From NCBI GenBank assembly GCA_037127955.1, contig JBAXXI010000005.1:1-35564 (forward strand): a DNA stretch of 35,564 bases, written 5' to 3'. The notes below the pieces were generated by a model. The model searched no databases, had not been told where the DNA came from, and saw only the letters and a list, made by a program, of their open reading frames with translations. How positions within the stretch are numbered: position 1 is the first letter of the stretch; every line of letters begins with the position of its first letter. Shown piece after piece: positions 18,838-35,564 of the stretch. The DNA is from Candidatus Berkelbacteria bacterium (GTDB taxonomy: Bacteria; Patescibacteriota; UBA1384; UBA12157). A program made the position numbers and the translations under genes.

Positions 18838-18838
18838 C

Positions 18839-19327: not shown

Positions 19328-19329
19328 GA

Positions 19330-19809: not shown

Positions 19810-20042
19810 AATGCTTTCCCCTTTTTTATTTTTAAGTTCCATTGGTTAGCATGCAAAATTTACCAACCAAATAATTGCCCTTATCTTACACCAAAAAAGA
19901 CCAAAAGTCAAGGGGTTTTGATCTTATTTTGAAAAACACTTGTCTTATTGTTATACTATTTTTTAGTCTTTAGATAATAATTATAGTAAAGATATTTACC
20001 TTCCACTTGCACCTCCAAGGTGCAAGTGCGGTTTTTAGACAT

Positions 20043-20070
20043 AAAAAAGCCTCGAGTTTTCACCCGAGGC
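20043..20070 (-). terminator. Intrinsic terminator
   Basis: AAAAAA-GCCTCGAG...CCCGAGGC hairpin. Confidence 0.75.
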
Positions 20071-20088
20071 CGCAAGCCATAACCTAAA

Positions 20089-20508
20089 TTATTGAATTTT
20101 AACCTTCCAATATTTTTCGTACTGGTAATTCCCGTTCCAATGCCAACTCATCTCGATATAGTCTTTAAACTTTTTACAAGTAGCTACCCCATTATCGACC
20201 CTTGGCGAATTGAAATTCGTCAATTCGATTGTCTCACCTTTATCCACCCAGTTGAAATTATAGCCCGAGCCATAAATTCCACCGGAAGCACTACCTTCGC
20301 CTTTTGTCTTAAAAACTATGGTTGCACCTATGAATTTATACATGGCGATGATCGTCACTGGCACATCTTGAGCCTGGCCGTAATTTGCGCTGCCACTAAC
20401 TTCAGACGTAACCGGCGGTGCAGAAATTTTTTCCTGGCGCGAACTATAAAGCGCCCACGCAATAACCACCACTGACAAAAAGATCCATATACCTGAATTA
20501 TTTTTCAT
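20089..20508 (-). CDS. Hypothetical exported/membrane-anchored beta-rich protein
   Basis: N-terminal hydrophobic segment, AGGGGG SD, own terminator. Confidence 0.7.
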   Translation of the reverse strand: MKNNSGIWIFLSVVVIAWALYSSRQEKISAPPVTSEVSGSANYGQAQDVPVTIIAMYKFIGATIVFKTKGEGSASGGIYGSGYNFNWVDKGETIELTNFNSPRVDNGVATCKKFKDYIEMSWHWNGNYQYEKYWKVKIQ

Positions 20509-20637
20509 AATTCACCACCCCCTATTTTTTCCAATCTAAATTGGTTGAATCGATTATACTACTAAAATTTAAACCTGTCAATAAGCAAATTTAATTTAAA
20601 AACCCCGATGTAATATCGGGGTCAAGTTCGAACGGAT

Positions 20638-20829
20638 TTAGCCGCCGCCAATTTGTTTTTTCAGCTCATCAATTAGTATATTTATAGCCATTAAAGCTAA
20701 TTGGCAGCAAATCTGTCCGGTTTTGTTATTGCTGGCCAAACAATCGTTAGCGAGTCGATCCAATTCATGAGCGATATAAATCGCCTGATCCAGCTGAGCC
20801 GCCTTGGTATTTCGAGTATCGGTTACCAT
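20638..20829 (-). CDS. Small hypothetical helical protein
   Basis: ATG 20829 after AAGGGGG; TTGACA upstream; terminator CCCCGAT...ATCGGGG at about 20603-20621. Confidence 0.6.
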   Translation of the reverse strand: MVTDTRNTKAAQLDQAIYIAHELDRLANDCLASNNKTGQICCQLALMAINILIDELKKQIGGG

Positions 20830-20962
20830 ATTTGTCACCCCCTTCTCGATTAGCCACAGCGTAACGCAATAAACCTGTAATGTCAAGTTTCGACTGATTC
20901 AAATTAAACAAAAAAACCGCCAGACTTGCTGACGATTTTTTTATCACTAATTTTGATTAATT

Positions 20963-22165
20963 TTACTTCGAAACTTCAAACCAAGTAGTTTTACCCGCCT
21001 TAACAGTCACTGGAGAACCCGACAAATCAATTTCTTGGTTTTGATCGGCAATTGTCTTATCGCCAATAGAAATTGCATTCTGCTCTAGTAAGCGGCGAAT
21101 ATCACCATTACTGCGCTCACCGGCAAAACAAACCTTCAATATTTCCATGATTGTGTCTTTGTCTTTGCCAATTTGAACTTTTGGAATATCAGTTGGAGTT
21201 TGTTTTTGACTAAAAGTTTTAATAAACCAATCTTTTTCGGCTTCGGCTTCGTCTTTTGAATAAAACATTTCGACAATAGTTTCGGCTAAAATCATTTTGA
21301 TATCGCGGGGATTAGCGCCACTTTTAAGTTGTTTTTCGTATTCGGCAATTTTATCCATTTCAACTCGAGTCACATGAATAAAATAGTCCATGATCAAATT
21401 GTCAGGAATACTCATAAGTTTCCCAAACATATCACGAGCTGAATCTGTTAAATTGATAGTATTACCCCAACTTGAACTCATTTTACGACCATCTGTACCT
21501 GGCAAAATACTCGTCATGACGAAATCTTGTGGCTCTTGACCATAATGAGCCTGTAAAGCTCTACCCGACAAAAGATTAAATCTCTGATCAGTTCCACCAA
21601 GCTCAACATCAGCTTTAACCGCCACCGAATCATAACCCTGCATTAACGGGTACAAAACTTCGCGAAGCGAAATATGTTTGCCGGCATCCAAGCGCTTTTT
21701 GATATTTTCACGTGCAATAAAATCAGAAATTGAAAAAATATTGGCCTGTTCGGTAATCTCTTTATACCCAAGTTTAGAAAGCCATTCTGAATTATTACGA
21801 ACTTCAACCTGGTCAAGATCCAAAATTTTACCAGCTTGAGCCACATAACTCTTCATATTTTCCTGAACGATTTCTTCTGAAAGCATCGGTCTTTCGCTAT
21901 CTTTATCAGAAGTATCACCAATAATCCCAGTAAAATCACCGATTAAAAAAACCACTTTATGGCCCAATTTCTGAAAATCGCGAAGCTTAAAAAGACAAAC
22001 GGCACGACCAAGATGAATATTCGGGCTGGTTGGATCAATACCTAATTTAATCCGAAGCTGTTTACCAGAACCCAAGGCCTTTTCTAAATGCTCACGATTT
22101 ATCACCTCGGTAACACCACGGGTTAAAAGTTCTTCGATTGCTTTTTTATCAGTATTAATCAACAT
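20963..22165 (-). CDS. tyrS: Tyrosine--tRNA ligase (housekeeping copy)
   Basis: IKLGIDPT, HLGR, GDFT, YPLMQGYD, GGTDQRFN, KMSSS, C-terminal S4-like domain. Confidence 0.97.
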   Translation of the reverse strand: MLINTDKKAIEELLTRGVTEVINREHLEKALGSGKQLRIKLGIDPTSPNIHLGRAVCLFKLRDFQKLGHKVVFLIGDFTGIIGDTSDKDSERPMLSEEIVQENMKSYVAQAGKILDLDQVEVRNNSEWLSKLGYKEITEQANIFSISDFIARENIKKRLDAGKHISLREVLYPLMQGYDSVAVKADVELGGTDQRFNLLSGRALQAHYGQEPQDFVMTSILPGTDGRKMSSSWGNTINLTDSARDMFGKLMSIPDNLIMDYFIHVTRVEMDKIAEYEKQLKSGANPRDIKMILAETIVEMFYSKDEAEAEKDWFIKTFSQKQTPTDIPKVQIGKDKDTIMEILKVCFAGERSNGDIRRLLEQNAISIGDKTIADQNQEIDLSGSPVTVKAGKTTWFEVSK

Positions 22166-22333
22166 TTTATTTCCTTTTAATTATTAGAATAATTTTTCTT
22201 TATTGTACACTTTTTTTCAGGTTAAATCAAAATTTTCGATTTTTCAAGCCTGAGACCTTGACAAAAACAGTTTTATGGTATAAAATATTGACAATCGTAC
22301 ATTAAAACGATTCATATTTCAAAGGGGGAAATT

Positions 22334-22762
22334 ATGATTCAAAGAATCGACAGAACACTACGCAATGTGAATCCTGGTTTAACCGGAACTCACAGCAACA
22401 TCCATGGCGACGCTTCAAACATCTGGGGAGACGCTACCAATATTATTGGTGATGTTACCAATATTTGCGGCGATGTCACCAATATTCGTGGCGTTGTGAC
22501 AGAAATCAAAGGTGATGTCACTAATTTAACTGGAGACACTTCAAGTATCCGTGGCCTGGTCACAAATATTTACGGTAACCCAGGAAAATTACGCGGCAAT
22601 GTCACCGAACTTATTGGCAATGTCACAAATATATCTGGAACCATTACAAAAATATTTGGTGATGTGTCAGATATCGAAGGGTGTATCACTTTTATTGAAG
22701 GCGATGCTACCGGGGTATTTGGTAAAGTTGATGATTTGGTCGGCCAGGAAATCAAAGTCTGA
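22334..22762 (+). CDS. Heptapeptide-repeat (IxGDVTN) protein, probable beta-solenoid
   Basis: About 17 tandem [IL]xG[DN][VAT][TS]x units; TTGACA...TATAAA promoter, AAGGGGG SD and own terminator. Confidence 0.8.
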   Translation: MIQRIDRTLRNVNPGLTGTHSNIHGDASNIWGDATNIIGDVTNICGDVTNIRGVVTEIKGDVTNLTGDTSSIRGLVTNIYGNPGKLRGNVTELIGNVTNISGTITKIFGDVSDIEGCITFIEGDATGVFGKVDDLVGQEIKV

Positions 22763-22769
22763 TCCAGAC

Positions 22770-22797
22770 AAGCTACTTATTCGTAAGTAGCTTTTTT
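22770..22797 (+). terminator. Intrinsic terminator
   Basis: AAGCTACTTA-ttcg-TAAGTAGCTT followed by T run. Confidence 0.9.
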
Positions 22798-22878
22798 ATT
22801 TCAAATCATATTGACTAAATTCATTTTTCGTGCTAATCTTGACTGTACCCAGAACTTTAACAAAAAAGGAGAAAAAAC

Positions 22879-23718
22879 ATGAAAATCGGTTGTCTCGGAC
22901 CTGCCGGAACTTTTTCCGAAGAAGCGGCTATAAAATATTACAAAACTGAGAAAAATTTAATTTTTTTCTCAAGTAATGAATCTGTCATTGAAGCACTTCA
23001 TCTTCAAGATGTTGATCAAGCGTTTGTTGCGATTGAAAATTCGATTGAAGGCCCGGTCAATGTAGTGGTCGACACAATCCAAAAATATCCTGAACTCCAC
23101 ATTACTGGCGAATACGTTTTGCCAATCTGTCAGGAAATTATGGCTTTTCAATACATTGTTTTAAAAAACATTAAAACCATTGTTTCGCACCCTCAGGCGT
23201 TAGCTCAATGTAGAAATTTTATCAAAAATGAGCTACCAAACGCTGTTATCGAAGAAGCAACCAGTACAACCAAAGCGATTGAAATGATCAAAAATCAAAA
23301 ATTTGACGTTTTAACTACAGCTGCGATTGGATCACCTCGAGCCAAAACCGTATATGGATTAAAAACTCTTTGGCCATGCGCTAATGACTCGAAAGATAAT
23401 TCGACTCGCTTTATTGCCGTTAATCGAACAGCCAAATTAAGACGAACGGGCGATGATCGAACATCTATCAGTTTTACTTGCGACAAAGACGAACCAGGAT
23501 CGCTTTCGAGAGTCCTGGAAGTCTTTAGCGTCTTGGATATCAATATGCTAAAAATCGAATCCAGACCGATTAAAAAAAATCTCGGCGACTACCTCTTCCT
23601 AATAGACCTTAATGGTCACTGTAATAACGCCAAAATCAAATTAGCCTTAGAAACCATTAAAAAAAGAACTGTTGATTTAAGAATTTTAGGTTCTTATCCT
23701 AAATTCAAACCCAAATAA
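22879..23718 (+). CDS. pheA: Prephenate dehydratase with ACT domain
   Basis: LGPAGTFSEEA, IENSIEG, SHPQALAQC, NSTRF, PGSL, INMLKIESRP, LGSYP. Confidence 0.95.
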   Translation: MKIGCLGPAGTFSEEAAIKYYKTEKNLIFFSSNESVIEALHLQDVDQAFVAIENSIEGPVNVVVDTIQKYPELHITGEYVLPICQEIMAFQYIVLKNIKTIVSHPQALAQCRNFIKNELPNAVIEEATSTTKAIEMIKNQKFDVLTTAAIGSPRAKTVYGLKTLWPCANDSKDNSTRFIAVNRTAKLRRTGDDRTSISFTCDKDEPGSLSRVLEVFSVLDINMLKIESRPIKKNLGDYLFLIDLNGHCNNAKIKLALETIKKRTVDLRILGSYPKFKPK

Positions 23719-23724
23719 TACAAC

Positions 23725-23751
23725 AAAGACCAGATAACTCTGGTCTTTTTT
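23725..23751. terminator. Terminator between pheA and tRNA-Tyr
   Basis: AAAGACCAGA-taac-TCTGGTCTTT followed by T run. Confidence 0.85.
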
Positions 23752-23753
23752 AT

Positions 23754-23840
23754 TGGTGCTGAGAGAGAGATTCGAACTTTCGTAGGCACAAGGCCGCCTG
23801 ATTTACAGTCAGGTGCGTTTGACCGCTCCGCCATCTCAGC
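23754..23840 (-). tRNA. tRNA-Tyr (GTA)
   Basis: Acceptor GCTGAGA/TCTCAGC-A-CCA; D arm GCG..GG..CGC; anticodon arm CCTGA-CTGTAAA-TCAGG; long variable arm; T loop TTCGAAT. Confidence 0.95.
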
Positions 23841-23883
23841 GCCTTTTTATATTTTAACTGAAAAATCAGAAAAATCAAGTAAT

Positions 23884-23910
23884 AAAAAGCCTCAGGTAAA
23901 ACCTGAGGCT
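23884..23910 (-). terminator. Intrinsic terminator ending the tyrS2 cluster
   Basis: AAAA-AGCCTCAGGT-aaa-ACCTGAGGCT. Confidence 0.85.
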
Positions 23911-23921
23911 AAACAAAAGCA

Positions 23922-24614
23922 CTAAATCAAATTAACAAAATTCTGGAAAATCGTCCGACTACACTCTTCGCGATAAGATTCAAAACCACGACCTATCTCC
24001 TGATCAAAAGATAATCCTTCCTCTTTAAGTTTTTCTTTCATAAGTTCAAAGATTTTTTGCGCCTTAAGAGGATGAATTTCAATATGAGATTGAACAGCCC
24101 AAACTGGCTTATCTTTCATTTTAAAGATTTCGGCCATATTGTTAGACGTACTGGCTAATAAAATGGCCCCTGGCGGCAAAGCTGCAACCTTATCTTGATG
24201 ATACTCGAAAAACGTCATCGCGTCGGGGCAGTTAGCCAATAGAGGATCGTTTTTGCCAGCCAAACTTAATTCAATCTGGTACCATCCTCTTTGCCAAGCT
24301 TGATTAAAAGCTAAGCATCCACCAAAGAGATGTCCGAGTATCTGACAACCAAGACAAACACCAAGAGTTGGTCTATCGTCAGACAACCAACTGTAAATGA
24401 AATCCATCTCCTGACGAAACCCTGATTCGCGCGAATGAATAATTTCTATCGCATTCATCGGTCCACCAGCTATAACTAAACCATCAAAATCACCTTTCGG
24501 CCGATCTTCGAGGTAAGCAGGCCAAACAATCGGTCGCACCCCAATATCACCAATGAATCTATCGATATTTTCAGCACGGCCTGGAGCATGTTCGATAATT
24601 AATATTTTTTTCAT
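23922..24614 (-). CDS. Stand-alone class I glutamine amidotransferase / gamma-glutamyl hydrolase-like protein
   Basis: IAGGP, nucleophile elbow LGVCLGCQ, HQD, QSHIE (Cys-His-Glu triad). Confidence 0.9.
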   Translation of the reverse strand: MKKILIIEHAPGRAENIDRFIGDIGVRPIVWPAYLEDRPKGDFDGLVIAGGPMNAIEIIHSRESGFRQEMDFIYSWLSDDRPTLGVCLGCQILGHLFGGCLAFNQAWQRGWYQIELSLAGKNDPLLANCPDAMTFFEYHQDKVAALPPGAILLASTSNNMAEIFKMKDKPVWAVQSHIEIHPLKAQKIFELMKEKLKEEGLSFDQEIGRGFESYREECSRTIFQNFVNLI

Positions 24615-24615
24615 A

Positions 24616-25905
24616 TTAACCCCCTAAATTCCAATCTGGAGCTTTGCCGCTCTTTTTTTTGTAAATACGAGCGTAAGAAGCATTATTCTTTAGTTGAATC
24701 TGAATACGATTTCCAGACTCATCAGAACGAATTTTTCTATATTCAGCCTGAGGATTGATAATTCTAAAAGAATTAATTTTACCCCAAATAATATTCACAC
24801 CAAGCCCACTGCCTGTCATCGGCAAAGATTGACCATTTTCAGCATTAAACTGAAAACGTTCGGTGATAAAATGTTTTTCACCATCAAACCAATTGGTAGA
24901 TGGCTCCCACCCATCAGATGCCAAATTAGCAGTATGCAAAACTGAGGCAGCTTGTTGATCATAAACTCGACCAATCGCAGACGGGAAAGTCCCACCAACC
25001 ATCGATTCAGTCTTAATAATCTGATCCCAATTTGCAGACTCAATCAATTTGGCTTTAGCAATTCCGCCAATCTTTTGAATCTTAAAATTTAACCAAATAT
25101 TTTTTCCCAAACAAAGCTTTGCATCGGCTTCAGTCACAAATGATTCATCAGCAATGACTGGAATATTTCCAAACATTTTCAAATTAACCGCAGCTAAACC
25201 CAATGCATCAATACCTTCATTCGCAGAAATTGGCTGTTCGGCCCAACACAAACCAGAAAGAGTAGATCGAGAATTACACAGTTTGTTCAAAAACTGAATA
25301 AACTCATCAAAACTGTAACTACCATTAAAATCTACCGCGTAACGCGATCTGGTTTCGGCGACTAAAGACTCCATGGTATTAATCATGGCCACATCTGAAT
25401 CGATATCGACACCAGTTTTAATCTTTGGCACAGCCATCTTGCTAATCACCTCTTTAGCTTTTGCAATCGTTTGATCTATAGGCAAGAAAGGTATGCTGGA
25501 CAGTACCACTCCAGAAGAGCGTACCTGGCCATAAATATCAATTATAGACAATTGATGAACTTTACCATAAAGATCGTCAATAGCCATATTGAAAGCCGCC
25601 AAAGCCGCTGGAAACTCACCGATCTTTTCTTCGACACAGGCCAACATTTTGACTCGATCATCAACTAACCAGCCCTCAAAATTAAACTGACAAAGCGACC
25701 AATAAATATCCCAAGCATCGTAAGACGAAAATGGAAAATCTATACTGGCTTCACCCACACCTTCAAAAATTTTACCACCATCATCAGCAATCAATTTCAG
25801 GAACACTCTGGGCAAAGTTGTTAAAGTGCCGAAACCCAAATTAAACGGGTTTGACAAGTTAATTGCCACCATGATGATTTTTACATCAATGATTTTTGCT
25901 GCCAT
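24616..25905 (-). CDS. Enolase-superfamily (muconate cycloisomerase / dipeptide epimerase-like) enzyme
   Basis: GVGEA, AAFNMAIDDL, KIK, VDFN, EQP, ADES, NFKIQKIGG; ATG 25905 after AGGGGG. Confidence 0.88.
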   Translation of the reverse strand: MAAKIIDVKIIMVAINLSNPFNLGFGTLTTLPRVFLKLIADDGGKIFEGVGEASIDFPFSSYDAWDIYWSLCQFNFEGWLVDDRVKMLACVEEKIGEFPAALAAFNMAIDDLYGKVHQLSIIDIYGQVRSSGVVLSSIPFLPIDQTIAKAKEVISKMAVPKIKTGVDIDSDVAMINTMESLVAETRSRYAVDFNGSYSFDEFIQFLNKLCNSRSTLSGLCWAEQPISANEGIDALGLAAVNLKMFGNIPVIADESFVTEADAKLCLGKNIWLNFKIQKIGGIAKAKLIESANWDQIIKTESMVGGTFPSAIGRVYDQQAASVLHTANLASDGWEPSTNWFDGEKHFITERFQFNAENGQSLPMTGSGLGVNIIWGKINSFRIINPQAEYRKIRSDESGNRIQIQLKNNASYARIYKKKSGKAPDWNLGG

Positions 25906-25927
25906 TTTTATACCCCCTATTTTGTAT

Positions 25928-25978
25928 AAAAAAACTGCAATAGTTAACAGGTAGTCTCCCACCCTTAGCTATTGCAGT
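25928..25978 (-). terminator. Long intra-operon hairpin with GAGA tetraloop and U tract
   Basis: ACUGCAAUAGCUAA..GGUGG-GAGA-CUACC..UUAACUAUUGCAGU-UUUUUU on the minus strand. Confidence 0.65.
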
Positions 25979-25995
25979 AACAGATCGTGATCGAT

Positions 25996-26892
25996 TTATG
26001 GTTGACAAACAAGATTGATAATTCGAGAGATTTTATCCTCAAGCGAATTAGTATCCTCAATGCGACCATAAGTTGTCTCGTAGAGACGAACAATACTGGC
26101 CAAATATTTCTTGGCACCACCCAAGGTTTTATCCTGCAAATCCACTTCGGCCTTCAACATCTTTTCCTTAACTGGTTCATCATACTTTAAAAGTAGACGA
26201 TTTTCCCCAGGGATGGAAATATATGGTGAAGCTTTCGGACGATTTTTATCAAATGTCCGACCAGCCTTTAAGTAGAAAAATGAAACTGGCACATCAGAGA
26301 GTCGACGTAATTCTTGATCGAAAAGTCGTTCATCATTCCCAACCGGAGTTTCTCCAGATTGAGTAATCCAACCAATCTTTAAAACCATATTACGCATCTC
26401 ATTGAAATAAAGAATATCAGCCAATTCTCTCTTCACATATTCATGAAGAGTAGTTCTTTCGCTGGTCCATGATAAATGTTTTTGATACTCTGGTGTCTGA
26501 TCATATTCTGAAGACAAAATAACATGAAATTTCTCTAACTTTAATTTCTTTGCTACATGCTCCAGAACACTTTTAGTCTCGCGTGCGAGATGATCAACGT
26601 CCTCTGGTGTACAAAAATCATTACTCTTGGCATGAGTGTCGGCAATCACATGATAAATAGCATCTAAATTTAATAATTTTCTAAACTTTTCTGCTACTAA
26701 AATCATACCCAAAACATCGAATGGCAAACCAACTGACAAATATTTTGGCGTACAAAGACCAGTACCATAATAAATACTGCCTTTTTGTGCATCCACAATA
26801 CCTGGCAAAAGTTGAGCTACCGAAGGGTTCGGTTCGAGCAACGGCTCATTCATAACCGAATTTCTAACTGTCTCAATTTGTACTTTATCCAT
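25996..26892 (-). CDS. Hypothetical protein resembling a degenerate class Ic (TyrRS/TrpRS) catalytic domain
   Basis: Ordered motifs IYYGTG, IADTHA, LSSEY, YVKRELAD, GNDER, KASPY; no HIGH; ATG 26892 after AAGGGG. Confidence 0.55.
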   Translation of the reverse strand: MDKVQIETVRNSVMNEPLLEPNPSVAQLLPGIVDAQKGSIYYGTGLCTPKYLSVGLPFDVLGMILVAEKFRKLLNLDAIYHVIADTHAKSNDFCTPEDVDHLARETKSVLEHVAKKLKLEKFHVILSSEYDQTPEYQKHLSWTSERTTLHEYVKRELADILYFNEMRNMVLKIGWITQSGETPVGNDERLFDQELRRLSDVPVSFFYLKAGRTFDKNRPKASPYISIPGENRLLLKYDEPVKEKMLKAEVDLQDKTLGGAKKYLASIVRLYETTYGRIEDTNSLEDKISRIINLVCQP

Positions 26893-26905
26893 AAATACCC
26901 CTTTC

Positions 26906-28312
26906 TTATATACAAGCATTTTTAAATATTTGAATCAGCACATCTTTTCGTGAGCCAATACTATTATCGACTGAAATAGTTTTTAGAAACAGTTCAATTG
27001 CATTTGATCGACATTGATTATATATTTTTCTGGATATAAACCCCGGGAAATCAAATTCCTTTGGATCTAACCCAAACTTCAATAAACCGATAGACGCTCT
27101 TTCAATTTCTAAATCTAAAAGTTTATGCGCTACTTCAGTCTTCAAATTACCATTTTTATCACGACAATGCAACCGAGCAAAAAGGCCATAATTCATAGCC
27201 TGTATCTTGTCATCAACAACAATATCGAAAGGTAAAAGCTCTTCATGATTTTGTTGCGACCACAATAATCTACCAAGGTAGAACATTAACATGGCCGCGT
27301 CATCCTCAAGTGTTGGTTGCATTGGCAGTGCCCGAAACTCAACAATCAAGATATTTTTGCCATCTCGAAGAAATTTTAACCTTGCATCTCGCCAATTTAA
27401 ACCTATAGCAACATCAAAGGCATGCTCTCTGACAACAGGATCCTGACCGATAATAAAAGGATGCGCCAATAATTGGTCAAAATAATCATATACATCTTTA
27501 TAATAAGCCTTTGGCATTCCGATTCTTGTTAATAAGCCATCTCCAACTTCCCGTGTTGTTCTAACATCATGACTAATTTGCCAGGCTGGCAAACGGATAT
27601 CTGCTATCCCGGTCATTTTATAGTCAAGGAACATCGCATTCGTACCGAAAGCAGTCAATAGTGGCGAAAGCATCAAGGAGCGGTTAAGCTTATCTATCGC
27701 GTCTTTAATGTGCAAACAATCAATATTGAAATGTACAGCATTAAAAAGACTGATACAAGATGGATCGGCCACGTCGACTATTTCTTCTAAACCAAATGTA
27801 GTGTCTAACGGATGTCGTCGATTTCTTCTATGGAAATCCATACTTAACTCGTATTTAAAACACCCTTTAGTCACGGCCACTTCAGAAAGAGGTACAAACG
27901 GGTTGCTACCAGATCTCAAGACGCGGGAACCAGACTGATCTGCCAAACGGCCCAACAAGCTCTCTTTAAGACGATAATCGTCAATTAAGAGATTTAACTC
28001 TTTCCCTAAAAGATTAACTGGCCCTGTCCATAATTCAATTTGCGCGGCGCCCAACTCTTTATCAAAAATCGATGGGTCCTGGGCAATAATAGAATCTCTG
28101 ACAGATTGATCGGCCTGCGAATAAGAAGAAGTTAGTAAAGAATACTCGCTCTCCATACCCACTTTGTAAACACCTGGTTTGGCCACAAAATCGTCTAAAC
28201 TCAAACTGATACGCTTAGCTTCAGCAATAAAAGTTTGTTGCATTTCTAATTCAAAAGGAGAATTAAATCTACTCTGAACCATGTTCATGTTTGGTTTATA
28301 ACCCTTTTTCAT
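26906..28312 (-). CDS. Glutamate--cysteine ligase (GCS2)-family carboxylate-amine ligase
   Basis: KVGMESEY, ELGAAQIEL, AVHFNI, NWRDARLK, VEFRALPMQPT; ATG 28312 after AGGGGG. Confidence 0.82.
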   Translation of the reverse strand: MKKGYKPNMNMVQSRFNSPFELEMQQTFIAEAKRISLSLDDFVAKPGVYKVGMESEYSLLTSSYSQADQSVRDSIIAQDPSIFDKELGAAQIELWTGPVNLLGKELNLLIDDYRLKESLLGRLADQSGSRVLRSGSNPFVPLSEVAVTKGCFKYELSMDFHRRNRRHPLDTTFGLEEIVDVADPSCISLFNAVHFNIDCLHIKDAIDKLNRSLMLSPLLTAFGTNAMFLDYKMTGIADIRLPAWQISHDVRTTREVGDGLLTRIGMPKAYYKDVYDYFDQLLAHPFIIGQDPVVREHAFDVAIGLNWRDARLKFLRDGKNILIVEFRALPMQPTLEDDAAMLMFYLGRLLWSQQNHEELLPFDIVVDDKIQAMNYGLFARLHCRDKNGNLKTEVAHKLLDLEIERASIGLLKFGLDPKEFDFPGFISRKIYNQCRSNAIELFLKTISVDNSIGSRKDVLIQIFKNACI

Positions 28313-28322
28313 AATGTTCCCC

Positions 28323-29627
28323 CTACGAACACATTGTGATTTGAACAAATTGCCGCTTACCTACACGTAAAACAAAAGTTTTACTTTGCGGAAATAATGA
28401 AGAAACTTCGGTAATCTTTGAAGTTTCCTTTTCAACGACCACCTTAACAGAACCGGATTCAATTTGTCTTTTGGCCTCACTTCTTGTCTTGGCGCAACCA
28501 GATAAAGTCAGAATGTCCACCCAGTCCTTCACATTATTCATGTCAATTTCTAAGACGGCCATATCTTCTGGTAAATGTTTTTTTGAAAATAATTCAATAA
28601 AACTATTTTCAGCCTCGACAGCAATCTCATGAGATCCGGCAATCATAGTCACGATCACTCTCGCGAGCAAACGTTTCACTAACATTGGGTTAACCGATCC
28701 GGAATTCATAAAATCAGAAATTTTAAGCCATTCCTCATTTGTGATATCAGTCAATAATTTAAAGTATTCCTCCATAATCGCGTCCGGTATAGACATAATC
28801 TTACCGAAAATTTCAGATGGAGAGTCAGTCAAAGCAATAAAATTGCCTGCACTTTTACTCATTTTTTGACCATTACCATTTGTACCTTGTAAGATTGGTG
28901 TTGTAATACCAATCTGCGGTTCCTTGCCAGCGCTATGCGTAATCCTTTTAACATCCATAAAATTTAATAATTGATCGTTTCCGCCAAGTTCAATTTCTGA
29001 TTCAAGTACACACGAATCAATACCCATAAGAGTAGAATATAATAACTCTGCTCGAGTCACAGATTCACGGTTACGAAAATCATCACGTTGCATAGCCGAA
29101 CTAACAGTTTGTTTACTAAGTATTTGTAAAAAATCAAATAACTTATAATTTTCTAACCACTCACTATTATAACGGATCTCAGCTTTATTCAAATCAATTA
29201 AAAATTTTATCTGGTCGCAATAGCTTTCCATGTTAGACATGATTTCATCCTGTGTTAACACTGGTCTATTCATAATCCGACCGGTTGGATCGCCAATAGA
29301 AGCGGTAAAATCACCGATTAGAAAAATTATATGATGACCCATCTGCTGAAAACGTCTTAATAGAATCACCGGAACAATATGCCCCAGATGAATCGCGCTA
29401 CCAGTTGGATCTATACCATATTTTACTCTGATCGGTCTACCTGTTTCCTTAGAACGCAAAAGTTTGTGCGCCAATCTCTCTTCGTCAGTAATATTTGCGA
29501 TTTTTGGCCGCAAAAGTTCAAACTGCTGTTGAGCGTCAAAACCACTCAAGTCTACAAGAGTCTGAGCCAACCTTGTCTCTAATTTGTTCAAAAAATCTTG
29601 AACCGTTGAAAGAATATTTGTATTCAT
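28323..29627 (-). CDS. tyrS: Second tyrosine--tRNA ligase-like protein (TyrRS2)
   Basis: VKYGIDPT, HLGH, GDFTASIGDPTGR, YSTLMGID, GGNDQ, KMSKS, S4-like C-terminus ending VGKRQF. Confidence 0.9.
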   Translation of the reverse strand: MNTNILSTVQDFLNKLETRLAQTLVDLSGFDAQQQFELLRPKIANITDEERLAHKLLRSKETGRPIRVKYGIDPTGSAIHLGHIVPVILLRRFQQMGHHIIFLIGDFTASIGDPTGRIMNRPVLTQDEIMSNMESYCDQIKFLIDLNKAEIRYNSEWLENYKLFDFLQILSKQTVSSAMQRDDFRNRESVTRAELLYSTLMGIDSCVLESEIELGGNDQLLNFMDVKRITHSAGKEPQIGITTPILQGTNGNGQKMSKSAGNFIALTDSPSEIFGKIMSIPDAIMEEYFKLLTDITNEEWLKISDFMNSGSVNPMLVKRLLARVIVTMIAGSHEIAVEAENSFIELFSKKHLPEDMAVLEIDMNNVKDWVDILTLSGCAKTRSEAKRQIESGSVKVVVEKETSKITEVSSLFPQSKTFVLRVGKRQFVQITMCS

Positions 29628-29742
29628 GGAATACCCCCTTAATAAATTTTTAAGTTACACTTAAATGGTTAATAACCTTTTAAGTAGTACATTATTAAAT
29701 AACATTTTTTTTAATAAATGTCAAGAGAAAAAACGTATTTGA

Positions 29743-29771
29743 TTGACAAAATCTATAAAAAGGTTTTTAAT
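29743..29771 (+). promoter_or_regulatory. Sigma70-type promoter for the His-leader operon
   Basis: TTGACA (29743-29748), 17 bp, TTTAAT (29766-29771); a divergent TTGACA lies at 29724-29719 on the minus strand. Confidence 0.6.
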
Positions 29772-29804
29772 TATAAATAGATATTAAATATTATTAATAA
29801 AATT

Positions 29805-29870
29805 ATGATAAATAAAATTATTTCAAATTTACATCATCATGTAACACCACGCTGCTGGGTTACTTTTTGA
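29805..29870 (+). CDS. Putative histidine leader peptide MINKIISNLHHHVTPRCWVTF
   Basis: 21-codon ORF read by hand; CAT-CAT-CAT at 29832-29840; lies upstream of an operon ending in hisS; no clear SD. Confidence 0.7.
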   Translation: MINKIISNLHHHVTPRCWVTF

Positions 29871-29925
29871 TGTTTTAAAATAATTTTATAAAACACTAGT
29901 AAGTAGCCTGCCAGGGCTATTTTTT
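29841..29925 (+). promoter_or_regulatory. Transcription attenuator (1:2 protector, 2:3 antiterminator, 3:4 terminator)
   Basis: 1:2 GTAAC(A)CCA/TGGGTTAC; 2:3 GC(T)GGGTTACTT (29854-29865)/AAGTAGCCTGC (29901-29911); 3:4 AGTAGCCT-gcca-GGGCTATT plus T tract. Confidence 0.75.
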
Positions 29926-29982
29926 GTTTACAAAAATCAGCGATCAACGATCAATTTTTTGTTTACAAAAATCCGCGATCAA
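29919..29982. repeat. 29-bp direct repeat (28/29 identical) with near-palindromic core
   Basis: ATTTTTTGTTTACAAAAATC[A/C]GCGATCAA at 29919-29947 and 29954-29982. Confidence 0.9.
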
Positions 29983-30049
29983 AAAAATACTTTAGTTTAG
30001 AAAATCTTTTAATCTAAACTAAAACACGCACCTTAAAAAGGAGAAATCG

Positions 30050-30742
30050 ATGAAACAAGACCTATTCTCGCGTATCAAAGAACTGAGTTGTGTAACAAAA
30101 ATCAGTAATTTTTTCCCTCAAGAAAATCAAATTTTTGATTTTATCTTTTTTGTCTGTCCCAGATTCACTGGTAATGGCCTAAAAATAAATAAGCATAAAA
30201 CCGGATTTACCGCTAATTACAGGGAAGGAATTAGTGAATATTCAAAGGTAAGATTCCAAATGGTTAAAAATTTTATGGACCAGATTAACACAATTGGCAT
30301 TAACTACACCGTCAATACTATTTTTGCCGCTGCCGATTCTATATTACTATTCCCTATTCCAGCCGAACCTCCTTCTACACCCTCGGAAAACGATATTCCA
30401 GGTGATTTTAAACTGATTTCAAACCTTAATATTTATAGAAATCATTTTCAAACATTTGGCCAAATCTACAGACAAGAGCCTTGGAAAAATACACCAAACT
30501 GGGCATTAAAAATTGAATACGATAGACTTACCGAAATTATACCCAGTCACACTCTAGAAGAAATCAAGGAAGATTTTATTGCCAGATGTTTTGCCGGCTT
30601 TGCCCTTGACGGAATTATTTTAAAAAAAGGTCTATTTGGCACCAACCCAATTATTTTAGGAGTTGAAAGTAAAGGTGTCAGTGTACTTCAAAACTCTGCC
30701 CTTGAGCGAAAAGATTGGATTCCGGTCATCGATCTCTGCTAA
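30050..30742 (+). CDS. Hypothetical protein, alpha/beta Rossmann-like pattern
   Basis: AAGGAG SD; motifs FIFFVCPRF, TIFAAAD, GFALDG, IPVIDL. Confidence 0.75.
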   Translation: MKQDLFSRIKELSCVTKISNFFPQENQIFDFIFFVCPRFTGNGLKINKHKTGFTANYREGISEYSKVRFQMVKNFMDQINTIGINYTVNTIFAAADSILLFPIPAEPPSTPSENDIPGDFKLISNLNIYRNHFQTFGQIYRQEPWKNTPNWALKIEYDRLTEIIPSHTLEEIKEDFIARCFAGFALDGIILKKGLFGTNPIILGVESKGVSVLQNSALERKDWIPVIDLC

Positions 30743-30795
30743 TTTATGGGGAGGTTCGCCTCCCCATATTCTTCAAATTATTTAAAAGGAAAATT

Positions 30796-31542
30796 ATGAC
30801 TAAAAAATTAATTAAACAACTTAATGAAATCAATGATCAACAAAATGGACAAATAAATATTTTGTTTGATTGGGAGTGTCCACCAAGATTTATAGATTAT
30901 AAAAATAAACGAGAATTTGTTAATTTTGATGTGGACTTAAATAAAATATTTGCTCAACGAAAAATTGATAATTTTACAGAAATTCCGCGAACCATAATCA
31001 ATAAAAAAACCGATCTAGAAGTACTTAGGTTGATCAAAGATAATCGAATAAAATTTCAATATTATAAATTCATTGCGGATACAAATCTTGAATTAGTTCA
31101 AACAAAAAATAAGACACAAGCTAAACAAAAATTTTATGAATTTAAAAAAGTCCTAGAACAGAAAACTCTAAAATATCCTGTCAAAATTTCATTTTGGCTT
31201 TTTTCAGACTTTTTAAAAACAAAAAAATTATTTAAAAAATATAAAGAAATCTATAAAGTGTGGGTAGATAAAATTGAAAATGAAACAAGATACCAAAAAA
31301 TCTGGCAAAAACAGATTGAAAAAACCAAAAATCACATGGGGCTAAAAGATTCGTTAAAAATAAAAGAAATTGCCAAACGCACGATTGCTTCATATGCTGC
31401 CGAAGGTGCTATTTTTGAAATTTTAGAAACAAAAAATGAAAACTATATTTGGCTAAATTCTGCCGAAACAGACCAACAATCCATTAATACAACAAACTTA
31501 GCCCGCAAAGAAAAAATGATAATAATTTTTCCAAAAAATTAA
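30796..31542 (+). CDS. Hypothetical protein, possible distant paralogue of the upstream gene
   Basis: ATG 30796 after AAAGGA; motifs ILFDWECPPRF, KFIADTN, SYAAEG, MIIIFP. Confidence 0.75.
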   Translation: MTKKLIKQLNEINDQQNGQINILFDWECPPRFIDYKNKREFVNFDVDLNKIFAQRKIDNFTEIPRTIINKKTDLEVLRLIKDNRIKFQYYKFIADTNLELVQTKNKTQAKQKFYEFKKVLEQKTLKYPVKISFWLFSDFLKTKKLFKKYKEIYKVWVDKIENETRYQKIWQKQIEKTKNHMGLKDSLKIKEIAKRTIASYAAEGAIFEILETKNENYIWLNSAETDQQSINTTNLARKEKMIIIFPKN

Positions 31543-31591
31543 TTTGCCAGTGAGCTTGCGCTTGCGGTACAATACCTATATAGGAGAAAAA

Positions 31592-32947
31592 ATGCAAGAA
31601 AATAATACAACCAAAATTAATCCTCGTTTATTATCTGGTTTCAAAGATTTTTTACCAAAACAGAAAAATCAACGTGATTGGTTAATCAATCAGATCAAAA
31701 CTGTTTATGAATCCTTTGGTTTTCAACCACTTGAAACGCCAGTTTTAGAGTACGCCGATATTTTAACCGGTAAGTATGGCGAAGAAGCCAATATGATGAT
31801 GTATCGTTTTACCGATCAAGGTAAACGCGATGTAGCCATGCGTTACGATTTGACTATTCCGTTTGCTCGCATCATTGCCCAATATCCTGAACTACCCAAA
31901 CCTTTTAAACGCTATCAAATCGCTCCGGTCTGGCGGTCCGACAGCCCGCAAGCCGGCCGATACCGAGAGTTTTACCAGTTTGACGCCGATATCGCCGGTT
32001 CAGCTAGCATGTTGGCCGACAGCGAAATTATCGAAATTATTTATCGCTCGATGATTAAAATCGGGGTCAAGAATTTTAATATTCGCCTAAATAATCGAAA
32101 AATTCTCAATGGACTATTAGCTTACGCCGACATTAATCAAACCAAAGCCAATCAAGTTTTTCAAATGATCGACAAAATCGAAAAAATTTCTAAAGAAAAT
32201 TTTAGAAAAATTTTAACCGAAATTGTGGGTACTGATTCATATAAAAAAATCCTGGATTTTATTCAAATTAAAGGTTCAAATACTGAAATTATCGCACAAC
32301 TCAAACACCTGTTTTTAGCCAATGAAATTGGCTTAGCAGGCATCAAAGAAATTGAAGAAATTCTCGCTAATTTAGAGTTAAATAAAATCGAATTAAATAA
32401 AATTAAAATTGATCTTTCGATCGCCCGCGGCCTCGACTACTACACTGGCACGGTTTTCGAAACCGTACTTTTGGACGCGCCGGAATTTGGCAGTATATTT
32501 TCCGGCGGCCGCTATAATGAATTGATCGGGCTTTTTACCAACACCGATATACCCGCCATTGGCACCTCAGTTGGTATCGACCGACTTTTTACGGCCATGG
32601 AAAAACTCGATTTGTTGCCAAACAATAATAATTCGGCTAGTGCCCTGGTAACCGTTTTTCCGGAAAATCCGCAAGATTCACTCAAGGTTGCTCAAAAATT
32701 ACGTGAATCAGGCCTTAAAATCGAAACTTATTTGGGCGATAAAACTAATCTTAAAAATCAATTGAGTTATGCTGATAAACTCTCTATTCCGGTCGTAATC
32801 ATTACTTTTCCGGATCAAATTGAAAAAGATAATTATATTGTCAAAAAAATGGGCCAAAACTTTGGCGAAACCGAACAAATCGAAACAAATTTTGCTAAAT
32901 TAGCTGAAACGATTAAAAAAATTACCACAAAAAAAGACGAAAGTTAA
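31592..32947 (+). CDS. hisS: Histidine--tRNA ligase
   Basis: GFKDFLP, MRYDLTIPFAR, WRSDSPQAGRYREFYQFDAD, RGLDYYTG, GGRY, GIDRL, anticodon-binding domain; ATG 31592 after AGGAG. Confidence 0.98.
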   Translation: MQENNTTKINPRLLSGFKDFLPKQKNQRDWLINQIKTVYESFGFQPLETPVLEYADILTGKYGEEANMMMYRFTDQGKRDVAMRYDLTIPFARIIAQYPELPKPFKRYQIAPVWRSDSPQAGRYREFYQFDADIAGSASMLADSEIIEIIYRSMIKIGVKNFNIRLNNRKILNGLLAYADINQTKANQVFQMIDKIEKISKENFRKILTEIVGTDSYKKILDFIQIKGSNTEIIAQLKHLFLANEIGLAGIKEIEEILANLELNKIELNKIKIDLSIARGLDYYTGTVFETVLLDAPEFGSIFSGGRYNELIGLFTNTDIPAIGTSVGIDRLFTAMEKLDLLPNNNNSASALVTVFPENPQDSLKVAQKLRESGLKIETYLGDKTNLKNQLSYADKLSIPVVIITFPDQIEKDNYIVKKMGQNFGETEQIETNFAKLAETIKKITTKKDES

Positions 32948-32966
32948 ACTCTCGTCTTAAACAGAT

Positions 32967-34004
32967 CTAATCTTGAACCTCAGGCTGAACTTCGCCTTCG
33001 GGCTTATCAAACCAATGATCATCGATCATCCATTTGTCGATGGTTGAAAAAACCCGAGGGTGCGATTTAATTGCGTCATGATTTAAACTCAATGACGCTA
33101 ATTTAAATTGATGACAAAAAGGTTTTAAATCAAAACCAGCCGATTCAGAACTAACCAAACCATCGTGTACTGGAAAATTTGCATCTTGAATGGCTTTAAA
33201 AATTTTGTAACCCAGCCCTACTTTATTTTTTAAAAAATCATCTGGCTTGTAGCTACAAAGTCCTACGATCGAATAGTAATCACAAGGAACAATTTTATCC
33301 TCATCCGGACTATTTAGAAAAAATAAAATCATGGATTCAAAATACATATCATTAACTTCGACAGGCAAATTATTGTAATTTTCTCGGAGAATTTTTAACT
33401 CTTCCTCGTCAAAACCATTTTGAGGCGTTCCCATAAAAACTACTCGAGCAATTTTTGTTTGAAAGCAACCACATACTTTTCCTTCATTATGAGTTATACC
33501 GATCACAGTTTCTCCATAGCCCATCATCCAAATCGCCGAACGAACGATCAAACCACCCATACTATGAGCGAAAATATCAACTTTATCATTTGGCGTAAAC
33601 TGGTTGGTTTTATCAATAAACAAGTCTACAAATGAACGAGTTGTCTGGAAAATACCAGAACCAGTTGGATAAGAAATTGCATAAATAAGATCGTAAGCCG
33701 GAATAACCTTATCGTTAATTTTACGACCATTACTTAGATATGCGGCCAAAGGAGTCATATCCTTATAGCTACCCCAAAAAGCTGGACAACCATGCACCAT
33801 AATGGCAATTCGTTTTCCAGCCGGCCAAGGATTATCGTCTTTTACCCATGAATCCAGCACCATATTAGCATTTAAAACCATATCGGCTGGTAAATTTTTA
33901 AACTCTCTCGGCTGATACCGATAAACCTGGAGTTTTGGCAAAGCCAAACCTACCGCCGATGCCATGATCAGTAAAACTACAACCAAGAAAAATCGATCTT
34001 TCAT
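32967..34004 (-). CDS. Exported alpha/beta hydrolase (lipase/esterase-like)
   Basis: Signal/TM N-terminus; MVHG, AHSMGG nucleophile, MGTP, HDGLV, NH triad pattern. Confidence 0.85.
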   Translation of the reverse strand: MKDRFFLVVVLLIMASAVGLALPKLQVYRYQPREFKNLPADMVLNANMVLDSWVKDDNPWPAGKRIAIMVHGCPAFWGSYKDMTPLAAYLSNGRKINDKVIPAYDLIYAISYPTGSGIFQTTRSFVDLFIDKTNQFTPNDKVDIFAHSMGGLIVRSAIWMMGYGETVIGITHNEGKVCGCFQTKIARVVFMGTPQNGFDEEELKILRENYNNLPVEVNDMYFESMILFFLNSPDEDKIVPCDYYSIVGLCSYKPDDFLKNKVGLGYKIFKAIQDANFPVHDGLVSSESAGFDLKPFCHQFKLASLSLNHDAIKSHPRVFSTIDKWMIDDHWFDKPEGEVQPEVQD

Positions 34005-34140
34005 TTTGAATTCCCCCTTTAAAATAGATTTTTAAGATTCAATTTAAAACTGAACATATTCTAACACAATTAACAACCTATTTCAATCTGTTAAGCTTTA
34101 GTGTAAACTAAAACTACAAATTAATTTGGAGATTAATCAA

Positions 34141-35424
34141 ATGGAAAGAACTATAATCAAAGATTTAAAAGATAAAATCGGCAAAGAAGTTTCACTTTTT
34201 GGTCGGATTTTAAATATTCGTAAACTCGGCCAAATCACTTTTATTGTACTTCAAGATTACTCTGGCACAGTTCAAACTGTCTGGGAAACCGAAGTTAAAG
34301 CCAGTGTGGGCGAAGCAGTTAAAATTCAAGGAACAGTTAAGGCTGACACCAGAAGCAAAAGCGGTGTCGAGCTCGGCGGATCACACCTTGAAATTATCTC
34401 AACCAATATCGAAGAACTTCCTTACGATTTTGCTGGTAAAGACCTAAATCTTCAATTGAATACATTGTTAGATTTGCGCACCACTAGCCTTCGTCACCCA
34501 AAAGCCCAAGCAGTTTTCAAACTTTACGATTTGCTCTTGGAAGGTTATGAAAAAACCATGCGAGCCGAAGGTTTTACCGAAATCAAAACGCCAAAAATTA
34601 TCGAAACAGCCTCAGAAGGCGGCGCTAACTTTTTCAAAATTAAATATTTTGATCAAGATGCTTATTTAGCTCAAAGTCCACAACTTTATAAACAAATTAT
34701 GGTTGGGGTTTTTGAACGAGTTTTTGAAATTGGTTCAGTTTTCCGCGCCGAACCTCATTTTACCACTCGCCATATTAATGAATTCACCGGCCTAGACGCA
34801 GAAATGGGTTTTATTGAAAATTTTAAAGACGTTTCCAGTATGCTAAATAAAGTCATAAAAAACGTTTTTGACCACATAAGAGCCAATGGAAGTGAATATT
34901 TGGCAGCCTATAACGCAGAGATTCCGGAAGTACCAGAAAATATTCCATCAATCAAACTAGCTGATTTAAGAAAATTGGTCAAAGAAAAATACGATTATAC
35001 AATTCCTGAAACTACCGATATTGACCCTGAGGGCGAACGTTTAGCTTGCCGTTGGGCCAAAGAAGAGCACAACTCAGATTTTGTTTTTATCACTAATTAT
35101 TTTTGGAAAGACAAACCTTTTTACACTATGCCATCTGACGAAACTCAAAACGAGACCGAAGGCTTTGATCTTCTTTTCCGTGGCGTCGAGATCGCGACTG
35201 GTTCACAAAGAATTCATGACTACAAAATGTTAATTAAAAATATGGAAGCCAAAGGTGTTAAAGCAGCCGGACTCGAATCATATTTAGACACATTTAAATT
35301 CGCTATGCCACCTCACGGCGGCTGGGGCCTTGGTTCAGAACGCATTATTCAATTGATTTTAGGCCTAGGCAGTATCAAAGAAGCTGTTCTCTTTCCGCGC
35401 GATGTCAAACGACTAAACCCATAA
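34141..35424 (+). CDS. aspS: Aspartate--tRNA ligase, short archaeal/eukaryal type, probably non-discriminating
   Basis: OB-fold N-terminus; EGGANFF, LAQSPQLYKQ, FRAEP..TTRH, GSQRIH, PPHGGWGLGSER, FPRD; no GAD insert. Confidence 0.95.
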   Translation: MERTIIKDLKDKIGKEVSLFGRILNIRKLGQITFIVLQDYSGTVQTVWETEVKASVGEAVKIQGTVKADTRSKSGVELGGSHLEIISTNIEELPYDFAGKDLNLQLNTLLDLRTTSLRHPKAQAVFKLYDLLLEGYEKTMRAEGFTEIKTPKIIETASEGGANFFKIKYFDQDAYLAQSPQLYKQIMVGVFERVFEIGSVFRAEPHFTTRHINEFTGLDAEMGFIENFKDVSSMLNKVIKNVFDHIRANGSEYLAAYNAEIPEVPENIPSIKLADLRKLVKEKYDYTIPETTDIDPEGERLACRWAKEEHNSDFVFITNYFWKDKPFYTMPSDETQNETEGFDLLFRGVEIATGSQRIHDYKMLIKNMEAKGVKAAGLESYLDTFKFAMPPHGGWGLGSERIIQLILGLGSIKEAVLFPRDVKRLNP

Positions 35425-35564
35425 TTTTCAAAACTTTGGAAATTTCCGCGCACGAAGTGCCATAATTTTCGTGAAAATTTCCGCGCACAAAGTGCCATAA
35501 TTTTCGTGAAAATTTCCGCGCACGAAGTGCCATAATTTTCGTGAAAATTTCCGCGCACGAAGTG
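35420..35564. repeat. 35-bp tandem repeat running off the window end
   Basis: CATAATTTTCGTGAAAATTTCCGCGCACGAAGTGC: degenerate copy 35420-35460, copies at 35461, 35496 and 35531; no spacers. Confidence 0.95.

Follow-up and report, generated by a model that had tools for sequence, protein, structure and literature searches.

Does the loss of one substrate-contacting glutamine from a second tyrosyl-tRNA synthetase (TyrRS) mean that the enzyme has acquired a new substrate? The question is raised by the 35,564-nucleotide stretch of DNA analyzed here in full (the window; contig C5 of a 0.82 Mb genome that is 95% complete), whose genes have their named relatives in Patescibacteria and which encodes two TyrRSs:

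20963..22165, minus strand: housekeeping TyrRS, the comparison copy with the canonical Gln (308.7 bits on TIGR00234)
28323..29627, minus strand: TyrRS2, a second bacterial-type TyrRS of 434 aa with a Thermus-type Lys69 and an S4-like C-terminus (assigned from TIGR00234, motifs and clade alignment)

Methionine at the glutamine position of TyrRS2

The two synthetases are 36% identical, and TyrRS2 groups apart from the housekeeping copy in a tree. TyrRS2 is full length and scores 298.7 bits on the TIGR00234 family model (cut-off 113.8), and profile searches returned weak S4/SYY_C matches for its C-terminal S4-like region. A sequence-only reading of the window had reported Met in place of a conserved Gln in TyrRS2, and we confirmed this: the motif YSTLMGID begins at residue 197, with Met201 encoded by ATG at 29025-29027, whereas the housekeeping copy has YPLMQGYD at 172, with Gln176 encoded by CAG. 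A contig from a separate run that covers 24944-30100, and that may stem from the same campaign, has no listed difference within TyrRS2. In alignments to solved structures Met201 falls on the Gln that binds the amino group of the substrate (Q173 of the B. stearothermophilus enzyme). The role assigned to this Gln in the same reading is in print: the accessible part of one report describes substrate contacts by Tyr169, Gln173 and Asp78 of BstTyrRS, with the Gln binding the amino group (PMC1934993), and that of another gives Gln155, Gln173 and Tyr151 as the amine contacts of MjTyrRS (PMC10322718).

The remainder of the active site is retained, as had also been claimed for HLGH, GGNDQ, KMSKS (at residues 80, 215 and 255) and the phenol-binding Asp. 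The phenol contacts (Lys/Tyr34 and Asp176) and the amino contacts Asp78, Tyr169 and Gln195 are all kept, and Gln173 is the only one of the pocket and ATP-site residues to have changed. Among the best 120 homologues of TyrRS2, the 60 members of its clade carry Met (55), Gln (3) or Thr (2) at the Gln173 position and the remaining 60 all carry Gln, which argues that the change is a clade trait and not chance. Lys69, Asp113, Tyr197, Asp204 and Gln219 are invariant in all 60 clade members, as are both HIGH histidines and both KMSKS lysines. With its ATP-site and remaining pocket residues kept, TyrRS2 is very likely an active synthetase, as had been proposed. The housekeeping TyrRS itself has variant motifs, with HLGR for HIGH, KMSSS, and GDTS for GDPT.

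TyrRSs without the glutamine in other genomes

A 401-genome sample of the phylum was searched with exact patterns, none of which matched in about 150 of the genomes. The Gln pattern occurred in 241 genomes, of which one (G177) carries an unpublished flag, and the Met pattern in two; when the pattern required a codon whose first base is other than C, 13 genomes matched, with Val in eight, Thr in three and Met in two. Both Met genomes also carry the gene for a TyrRS-fold protein encoded close to TyrRS2 in the window (the partner, described below), and the suspected association of Met with the gene cluster is supported by this pairing together with the rarity of Met. None of the 11 Val or Thr genomes had a Gln-pattern match, and in all eight of them that were scanned with the Pfam family the Val or Thr enzyme was the only TyrRS. 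Six of these genomes are 99-100% complete (G025, G079, G267, G310, G389 and G311) and two are less so (G101, 93%; G125, 91%, with TrpRS missing there as well). The enzymes with Thr are members of the TyrRS2 clade, at 42-43% identity, and the partner is absent from their genomes (G101 and G125). Val at the Gln173 position (YPLMVGYD) stands in the housekeeping TyrRSs of L166-L171, L175 and L176, which span at least four families of the phylum.

In Pfam PF00579 scans the Met copy was the only TyrRS found in four genomes (G011, G012, G013 and G250), whose matches were TrpRS and the Met TyrRS and nothing else; G011-G013 are three of the five genomes of one such scan, and completeness is given for G250 only (97%). 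The same five-genome scan returned a single Gln copy from G002 and just a Met fusion from G007, a genome of only 0.4 Mb. One tRNA-Tyr, within the housekeeping tRNA cluster, was counted in each of G012, G013 and G250, two in G311 and none in G011, with five of 25 pattern matches, which came without a locus, lying outside this count. Every genome in which Met is the sole TyrRS also has the partner. Elsewhere among partner-bearing genomes the cluster TyrRS is a second copy; two TyrRS-pattern matches were found in 8 of 23 such genomes, one match, in G017, being a TrpRS.

The position varies near the partner gene as well. Of 46 non-identical bacterial-type TyrRSs taken from the window and the partner loci, a set that takes in housekeeping copies lying close by, 27 carry Gln, 18 Met and one Val, so the swap is not fixed in cluster-associated copies. 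At the same helix position of bacterial TrpRS, Met is found in many enzymes and Gln in others, and BsTrpRS is described in the available text of a preprint as carrying Met129 there (bioRxiv 2026.03.23.713518). A convergent origin of Met was considered and set aside: a quick tree (87 rows, motif columns dropped) gave four Gln/non-Gln changes, yet the AU test, run without two long rows, did not reject a single Met clade (p-AU 0.27). The Met clade reaches several Streptomyces species and Candidatus Nanosynbacter as enzymes of about 470 aa (P0107, P0389-P0393 and P0395), and culturable hosts are among them.

Gln173 is not strictly family-defining, since Val, Thr and Met all occur there in housekeeping enzymes that are the only copy. 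The earlier proposal that loss of the Gln points to a substrate other than L-Tyr is not supported, being weakened by the non-Gln sole TyrRSs, by Met in TrpRS and by the 27 of 46 module-side copies with Gln. By its own terms that proposal would fail if Met were common in sole housekeeping enzymes, and the genomes largely go against it: sole enzymes do depart from Gln, with Met alone in four genomes and Val or Thr in all eight scanned. Met itself is rare (2 of 401 genomes). Met201 likely does not change the substrate of TyrRS2 and, judging from the sole-copy genomes, the enzyme likely still makes ordinary L-Tyr-tRNA; the second option of the earlier reading, a variant tolerant of an analogue or inhibitor, is possible and fits the neighboring genes. 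Taken alone, the replacement of this residue is of minor weight, a clade trait that is tolerated. Natural housekeeping enzymes can dispense with the amino-binding Gln that textbooks assign to TyrRS, a point of relevance to synthetase engineering, and one residue is insufficient for calling a new substrate.

The partner protein and the window operon

Downstream of TyrRS2, five genes follow in order on the same strand, with a sixth gene convergent on them:

26906..28348, minus strand: GCS2/YbdK-like carboxylate-amine ligase (PF04107, E 0.003)
25996..26919, minus strand: partner protein, 307 aa as called and probably 298, of class-Ic/archaeal TyrRS fold (AlphaFold, Foldseek, VIA, hhalign and conservation)
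24616..25962, minus strand: enolase-superfamily enzyme, two-lysine (MLE) subgroup (PF13378/PF02746)
23922..24614, minus strand: class-I glutamine-amidotransferase (GATase)-like protein (PF00117, PF07722), Cys-His-Glu triad intact
23754..23840, minus strand: second tRNA-Tyr(GUA) (ARAGORN, Rfam RF00005), with G1:C72, A73 and a long variable arm
22879..23718, plus strand: prephenate dehydratase with ACT domain (NF008865, above cut-off), convergent with the operon

The partner has a confident AlphaFold model (pLDDT 94), and this predicted structure aligns with A. pernix TyrRS over 261 residues (VIA, Z 20.7, rmsd 3.4). It also matched the TyrRS fold in Foldseek (TM 0.63) and an archaeal TyrRS profile in hhalign (E 1e-5), and the match to archaeal/eukaryotic TyrRS takes in its whole length, the alignment running to residue 307. 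The ATP motifs are missing, with SxGLP standing for HIGH and KASPY for KMSKS, and the CP1 dimer region is shorter by about 20 residues (a segment of 25 residues vs 43-47 in TyrRS). By profile alignment, Tyr161, Glu or Gln165 and Asp168 fall on the Tyr/Gln/Asp pocket helix of TyrRS. Across 116 diverse members G52, G54, P66, Y161, K181, W184, P232, Y233 and R241 are invariant and position 165 is Glu in 67 and Gln in 49; Asp196/Glu197 are reported invariant alongside Lys181, Trp184 and Arg241, and these residues look catalytic. No Pfam DTD match was found in the partner, and its predicted fold is class Ic; it may work like a D-aminoacyl-tRNA deacylase while not being a member of the DTD1/DTD2 family. 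As a replacement for DTD1 it was considered and rejected, there being no exclusion between the two (DTD1 in 4 of 24 partner-bearing vs 15 of 151 background genomes).

The family comprises at least 422 sequence clusters at E <= 1e-10. Among those looked up, named partner-only members are all called hypothetical, and their sources include Alphaproteobacteria, Deltaproteobacteria and Haliangiales. In the phylum sample the gene is rare (3 of 401 genomes) and absent from the genomes of the same genus and family, and a sequence search for it on plasmids or viruses gave no match. Horizontal spread of the module fits these data, since close relatives lack the partner and TyrRS2 stands apart from the housekeeping copy. 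A distant family match (E 2e-12) was noted at G389:C1:43153-43770, the Val-type housekeeping TyrRS of that genome lying on another contig.

The other operon genes are those of an amino acid conversion route, if their families are a guide. An orthologue of the ligase in L012 matches PF04107 above cut-off (E 8e-11), a GCS2-like ligase is present in 27 of the 88 partner loci considered below, and the window ligase is predicted to perform a gamma-glutamylating step. The enolase-superfamily enzyme conserves the KxK, D, E, D and K motifs, that is, two catalytic Lys and three metal ligands. It falls below cut-off for all NCBIfam equivalogs and has PDB matches to 3r0k, 3rit and 2p88, its nearest solved relatives including dipeptide epimerases; we predict an N-acyl-amino-acid or dipeptide epimerase. 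The GATase-like protein, whose top NCBIfam matches (below cut-off) are stand-alone GATases, is a putative gamma-glutamyl hydrolase.

The other tRNA-Tyr of the source genome is on contig C11. T-stems of the operon tRNAs are mostly normal, with no common EF-Tu-evading pattern, and the tRNAs therefore suit ribosomal use; an A51-C63 mismatch in the window tRNA had made EF-Tu evasion a candidate, which was dropped on finding the closest relative (L024) and other operon tRNAs without it. Prephenate dehydratase recurs as an accessory gene, in 8 of the 88 loci. De novo Phe/Tyr synthesis was considered and rejected, with chorismate synthase found in none of five genomes and chorismate mutase in two, neither being found in the source genome. 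No riboswitch or T-box scored above the Rfam cut-off in 19000-35564, and promoter-like sites were at chance level.

The partner also resembles the cyclodipeptide synthases (CDPSs). AlbC and Rv2275, in the accessible text of PMC3105412, likewise have a class-Ic fold, no ATP motifs, a missing CP1 dimer region and a Gly/Tyr/Glu pocket. The main rival to the D-tyrosine reading given below, conceivable if on balance rather unlikely, is a biosynthetic cluster in which a CDPS-like, ATP-independent partner joins Tyr from Tyr-tRNA to a D-amino acid. Flow would be L-to-D, with the D-amino acid made by the racemisation genes; substrate, and possibly self-resistance to a tyrosyl-dipeptide inhibitor, would come from TyrRS2 and the extra tRNA. 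G52/Y161/E165 of the partner match G35/Y178/E182 of AlbC, HIGH and KMSKS are absent and CP1 is shortened, and CDPS structures match the partner at Z 11-13; M15 D,D-peptidase, EamA exporter and aromatic-pathway genes lie nearby, and one partner (P0243) carries an Acetyltransf_6-family GNAT as a fusion. However, the partner matches TyrRS (Z 20.7) far better than the best CDPS (Z 13.2), and it keeps both the phenol-binding Asp and a C-terminal tRNA-binding-type domain. The CDPS nucleophile Ser is absent, with Gly54 in all 116 members, and 49 of the 116 have Gln where AlbC needs Glu, AlbC E182Q being reported inactive (PMC3105412). Gly54, two residues after the pocket Gly, stands in the place of AlbC S37 in a mapping that rests on the hhalign register; position 56 is Cys, Ser, Thr or Val and not invariant. 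Several loci, moreover, consist of tRNA, partner and TyrRS only, with no tailoring gene within 6 kb, and an analogous Trp system was judged translation-related by its describers in the part of their report available (PMC5370408).

A recurrent module and its possible role in D-tyrosine handling

We collected 88 partner loci (23 genomes and 65 metagenome contigs, duplicates included) and counted neighbors within 6 kb of the partner at the 36 loci (duplicates again included) that are flanked by 4 kb or more in both directions. A TyrRS was found at 28 of the 36, tRNA-Tyr at 13 and a racemase or epimerase at 28; 35 had at least one of the three, the exception being L020. Three conversion sets recur, with no shared locus among the 36:

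Set 1 (window): GCS2 ligase, enolase-superfamily enzyme and GATase
Set 2: GNAT (the acylating gene, a GNAT by fold), second enolase subfamily and M15 peptidase
Set 3: single Asp/Glu-type racemase with both catalytic Cys kept, beside an Lrp regulator in archaea

The partner, with its TyrRS fold and no ATP motifs, co-occurs with a TyrRS, an extra tRNA-Tyr and one racemisation set across Patescibacteria-type and archaeal genomes. Going by family membership, the three unrelated sets would converge on inverting the alpha-carbon of an amino acid. Minimal loci, with tRNA, partner and TyrRS alone or with partner and racemase alone, behave as independent tolerance genes would. Archaeal-type TyrRS loci carry C1:G72 short-arm tRNA-Tyr together with YbaK, and this match indicates that synthetase and tRNA travel as a pair. 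TyrRS-partner fusions occur in both orders (L005, L007, P0241, P0242, P0277 and P0351), and further neighbors include a YbaK editing domain, EamA exporters and aminotransferases. In L024, a locus syntenic with the window, a DAHP synthase is present in addition; a low-complexity repeat protein (GD/GN-x-T-N-I repeats; window 22334-22762, plus strand) adjoins the module there too. We conclude that the recurrent module, not the Met residue, is the real feature of this locus. It is also a source of natural matched TyrRS/tRNA pairs of bacterial and archaeal identity.

What might such a module do? We favor, tentatively and as a possibility short of a probability, the reading that this patchily spread module shields translation from D-tyrosine, or from some similar analogue of Tyr, and allows it to be salvaged, because three inverting sets adjoin TyrRS, tRNA-Tyr and a protein with a tyrosyl pocket, and because mischarging with D-Tyr is known. 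In the available text of earlier work, TyrRSs mischarge D-Tyr, which sequesters tRNA, and D-Tyr-tRNA accumulation is toxic (PMC1807948), and B. subtilis is protected by a selective second TyrRS, TyrZ (PMC9437257). TyrRS2 and the extra tRNA would uphold the L-Tyr-tRNA pool, possibly with an enzyme that tells L from D better, as TyrZ does, and Met201 would be a tolerated, TrpRS-like residue of its clade. The Tyr/Glu(Gln)/Asp pocket retained by the partner would hold the tyrosyl moiety of a charged tRNA-Tyr, and the partner, being ATP-free, would most likely strip off the wrong (D) isomer. In the salvage route, for which the activities of ligase, epimerase and hydrolase are predicted from their families, the ligase would gamma-glutamylate the amino acid, the enolase-family enzyme would invert the alpha-carbon and the hydrolase would release the product, for a net D-to-L conversion; other genomes could reach the same conversion with GNAT, epimerase and M15 peptidase, or with the single Asp/Glu-type racemase.

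Several observations stand against a D-Tyr role. There is no exclusion with DTD1 (4 of 24 vs 15 of 151 genomes), nothing connects Met with improved L/D selectivity and Gln is retained in many copies from the clusters. Pfam describes M15 peptidases as D,D-specific, and the M15 variant therefore points to L-to-D flow and against D-to-L salvage. The lack of ATP motifs, the lost dimer region and the Glu at the amino site are features of tRNA-consuming CDPS transferases. Neighboring genes for prephenate dehydratase, prephenate dehydrogenase and DAHP synthase are left unexplained, with chorismate synthase found in none of five such genomes. A wider reading takes in these alternatives and is nearer to an even chance, although still below it: the partner would be a new enzyme, derived from TyrRS and working without ATP, whose action on tyrosyl-tRNA depends on chirality (deacylating D-Tyr-tRNA, inverting it on the tRNA or transferring Tyr to a D-amino acid). 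A dedicated pair of synthetase and tRNA would serve it, together with a racemisation route of a new kind that goes through a gamma-glutamyl derivative. If true, this would establish either a new class of chiral proofreader or a new tRNA-dependent chemistry. A large uncharacterized family of synthetase-shaped proteins is in any case defined here, and its neighbors point to D/L handling, which makes a direct test possible.

Extended to the partner, the earlier altered-substrate proposal would have TyrRS2 charge its dedicated tRNA with a tyrosine of non-standard form (D-, N-acyl or deaminated), which the partner would convert to L-Tyr-tRNA there or use. The two proteins show complementary degeneration, TyrRS2 having kept the ATP site and lost the Gln and the partner having lost the ATP site and kept Gln or Glu; they are fused in both orders, Met appears only alongside the partner in the phylum sample (2 of 2), and archaeal-type TyrRSs come with matching C1:G72 short-arm tRNAs. 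Such indirect tyrosylation is nonetheless very doubtful: in the partner-free G101 and G125 no TyrRS was found besides a Thr enzyme of the same clade, the Val enzymes are ordinary housekeeping copies, 27 of 46 nearby TyrRSs keep Gln and at least six partner loci with a racemase have no TyrRS within 6 kb. Fusion of an active TyrRS to an inactive TyrRS-fold half is also described, in the available text, for the double-length, pseudo-dimeric TyrRS of trypanosomatids (PMC9437257). The partner, in contrast, is not a recent duplicate (a bacterial-type enzyme beside an archaeal-like fold) and has no dimer helix, which makes a TyrRS2-partner pseudo-dimer doubtful.

The module also has a counterpart for tryptophan. 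The TrpRS-A/ORF1/tRNA-Trp operon (Mukai et al. 2017, PMC5370408), as far as the accessible text goes, likewise joins an extra class-Ic synthetase to its own tRNA and a degenerate class-I-like partner in the same organism groups, and its authors read it as a response to amino acid limitation. In a further account, Met may have drifted neutrally in a transferred TyrRS clade while the module boosts Tyr-tRNA supply under tyrosine scarcity, with the partner as a non-catalytic tRNA- or tyrosine-binding helper. The relaxed Gln173 position in many housekeeping enzymes and the single Met origin, not rejected by the AU test (p 0.27), are in keeping with drift, but the repeated link to three unrelated racemisation sets would go unexplained and the partner invariants Lys181, Trp184, Asp196/Glu197 and Arg241 look catalytic; we regard this account as improbable. 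The Trp operon differs from the Tyr module in its amino acid, the Tyr partner having TyrRS and tRNA-Tyr as neighbors, and in that ORF1 keeps a CP1 segment of 48 residues where the Tyr partner is reduced to 25; neither racemisation sets nor the Gln-to-Met change are described in the accessible text of the 2017 report. A broad partner profile scored 11.2 bits on the ORF1 of L152 vs 3.8 for the best of 500 shuffles, over one 65-residue stretch of one ORF1 sequence, and hhalign gave the two families a probability of 1% (E 0.055). The architecture of the Tyr module parallels a known but unexplained operon, any homology between the two partners being weak, and if the chirality-dependent reading of the Tyr partner is true it offers a candidate function for ORF1-type proteins. 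G311 carries both systems. At L152 (G311:C3:6394-10236) and L149, a tRNA-Trp(A73) - ORF1 - TrpRS-A operon with Trp-free proteins is followed by a TrpRS fused to YbaK-like domains.

Other parts of the favored D-Tyr reading have precedents of their own. B. subtilis TyrZ is likewise a second TyrRS that charges L-Tyr and is linked to D-Tyr tolerance, but the available text mentions no partner protein, extra tRNA or racemase module (PMC9437257). For the conversion sets the likeness is to Geobacillus. Sakai et al. reportedly described there, in 2006, a route of acylation, N-acylamino-acid racemase and deacylation for D-to-L conversion. The three-step logic round an enolase-superfamily racemase is the same, and the GNAT variant of the module has the same part types; the window set differs in its GCS2-like ligase and GATase-type hydrolase (a putative gamma-glutamyl handle) and in its tie to a TyrRS/tRNA module. 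Our literature search, which lay largely outside supplements and subscription journals, found no description of the Tyr module, the partner family or the racemisation link.

Divergent from TyrRS2, three further genes lie on the plus strand:

30050-30742, plus strand: low-GC ORF
30715-31542, plus strand: low-GC ORF of 275 aa
31544-32947, plus strand: second HisRS, 25% identical to the other HisRS on contig C12

For the 275-aa ORF a class-Ic-like fold is predicted, with an atlas match to a Tyr/TrpRS-domain cluster at TM 0.54, and its conserved IADTN and YAAE motifs and lack of a C-terminal domain are CDPS-like; eight other homologues were found. The genes at 30050-32947 may form a further module, one for tRNA-dependent peptide synthesis that is separate from the Tyr module and includes a synthetase. 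At 18199-19842 on the minus strand, genes for a GNAT, a membrane protein and a pyruvoyl-dependent arginine decarboxylase stand in a row, an unusual amino acid metabolism for a reduced genome.
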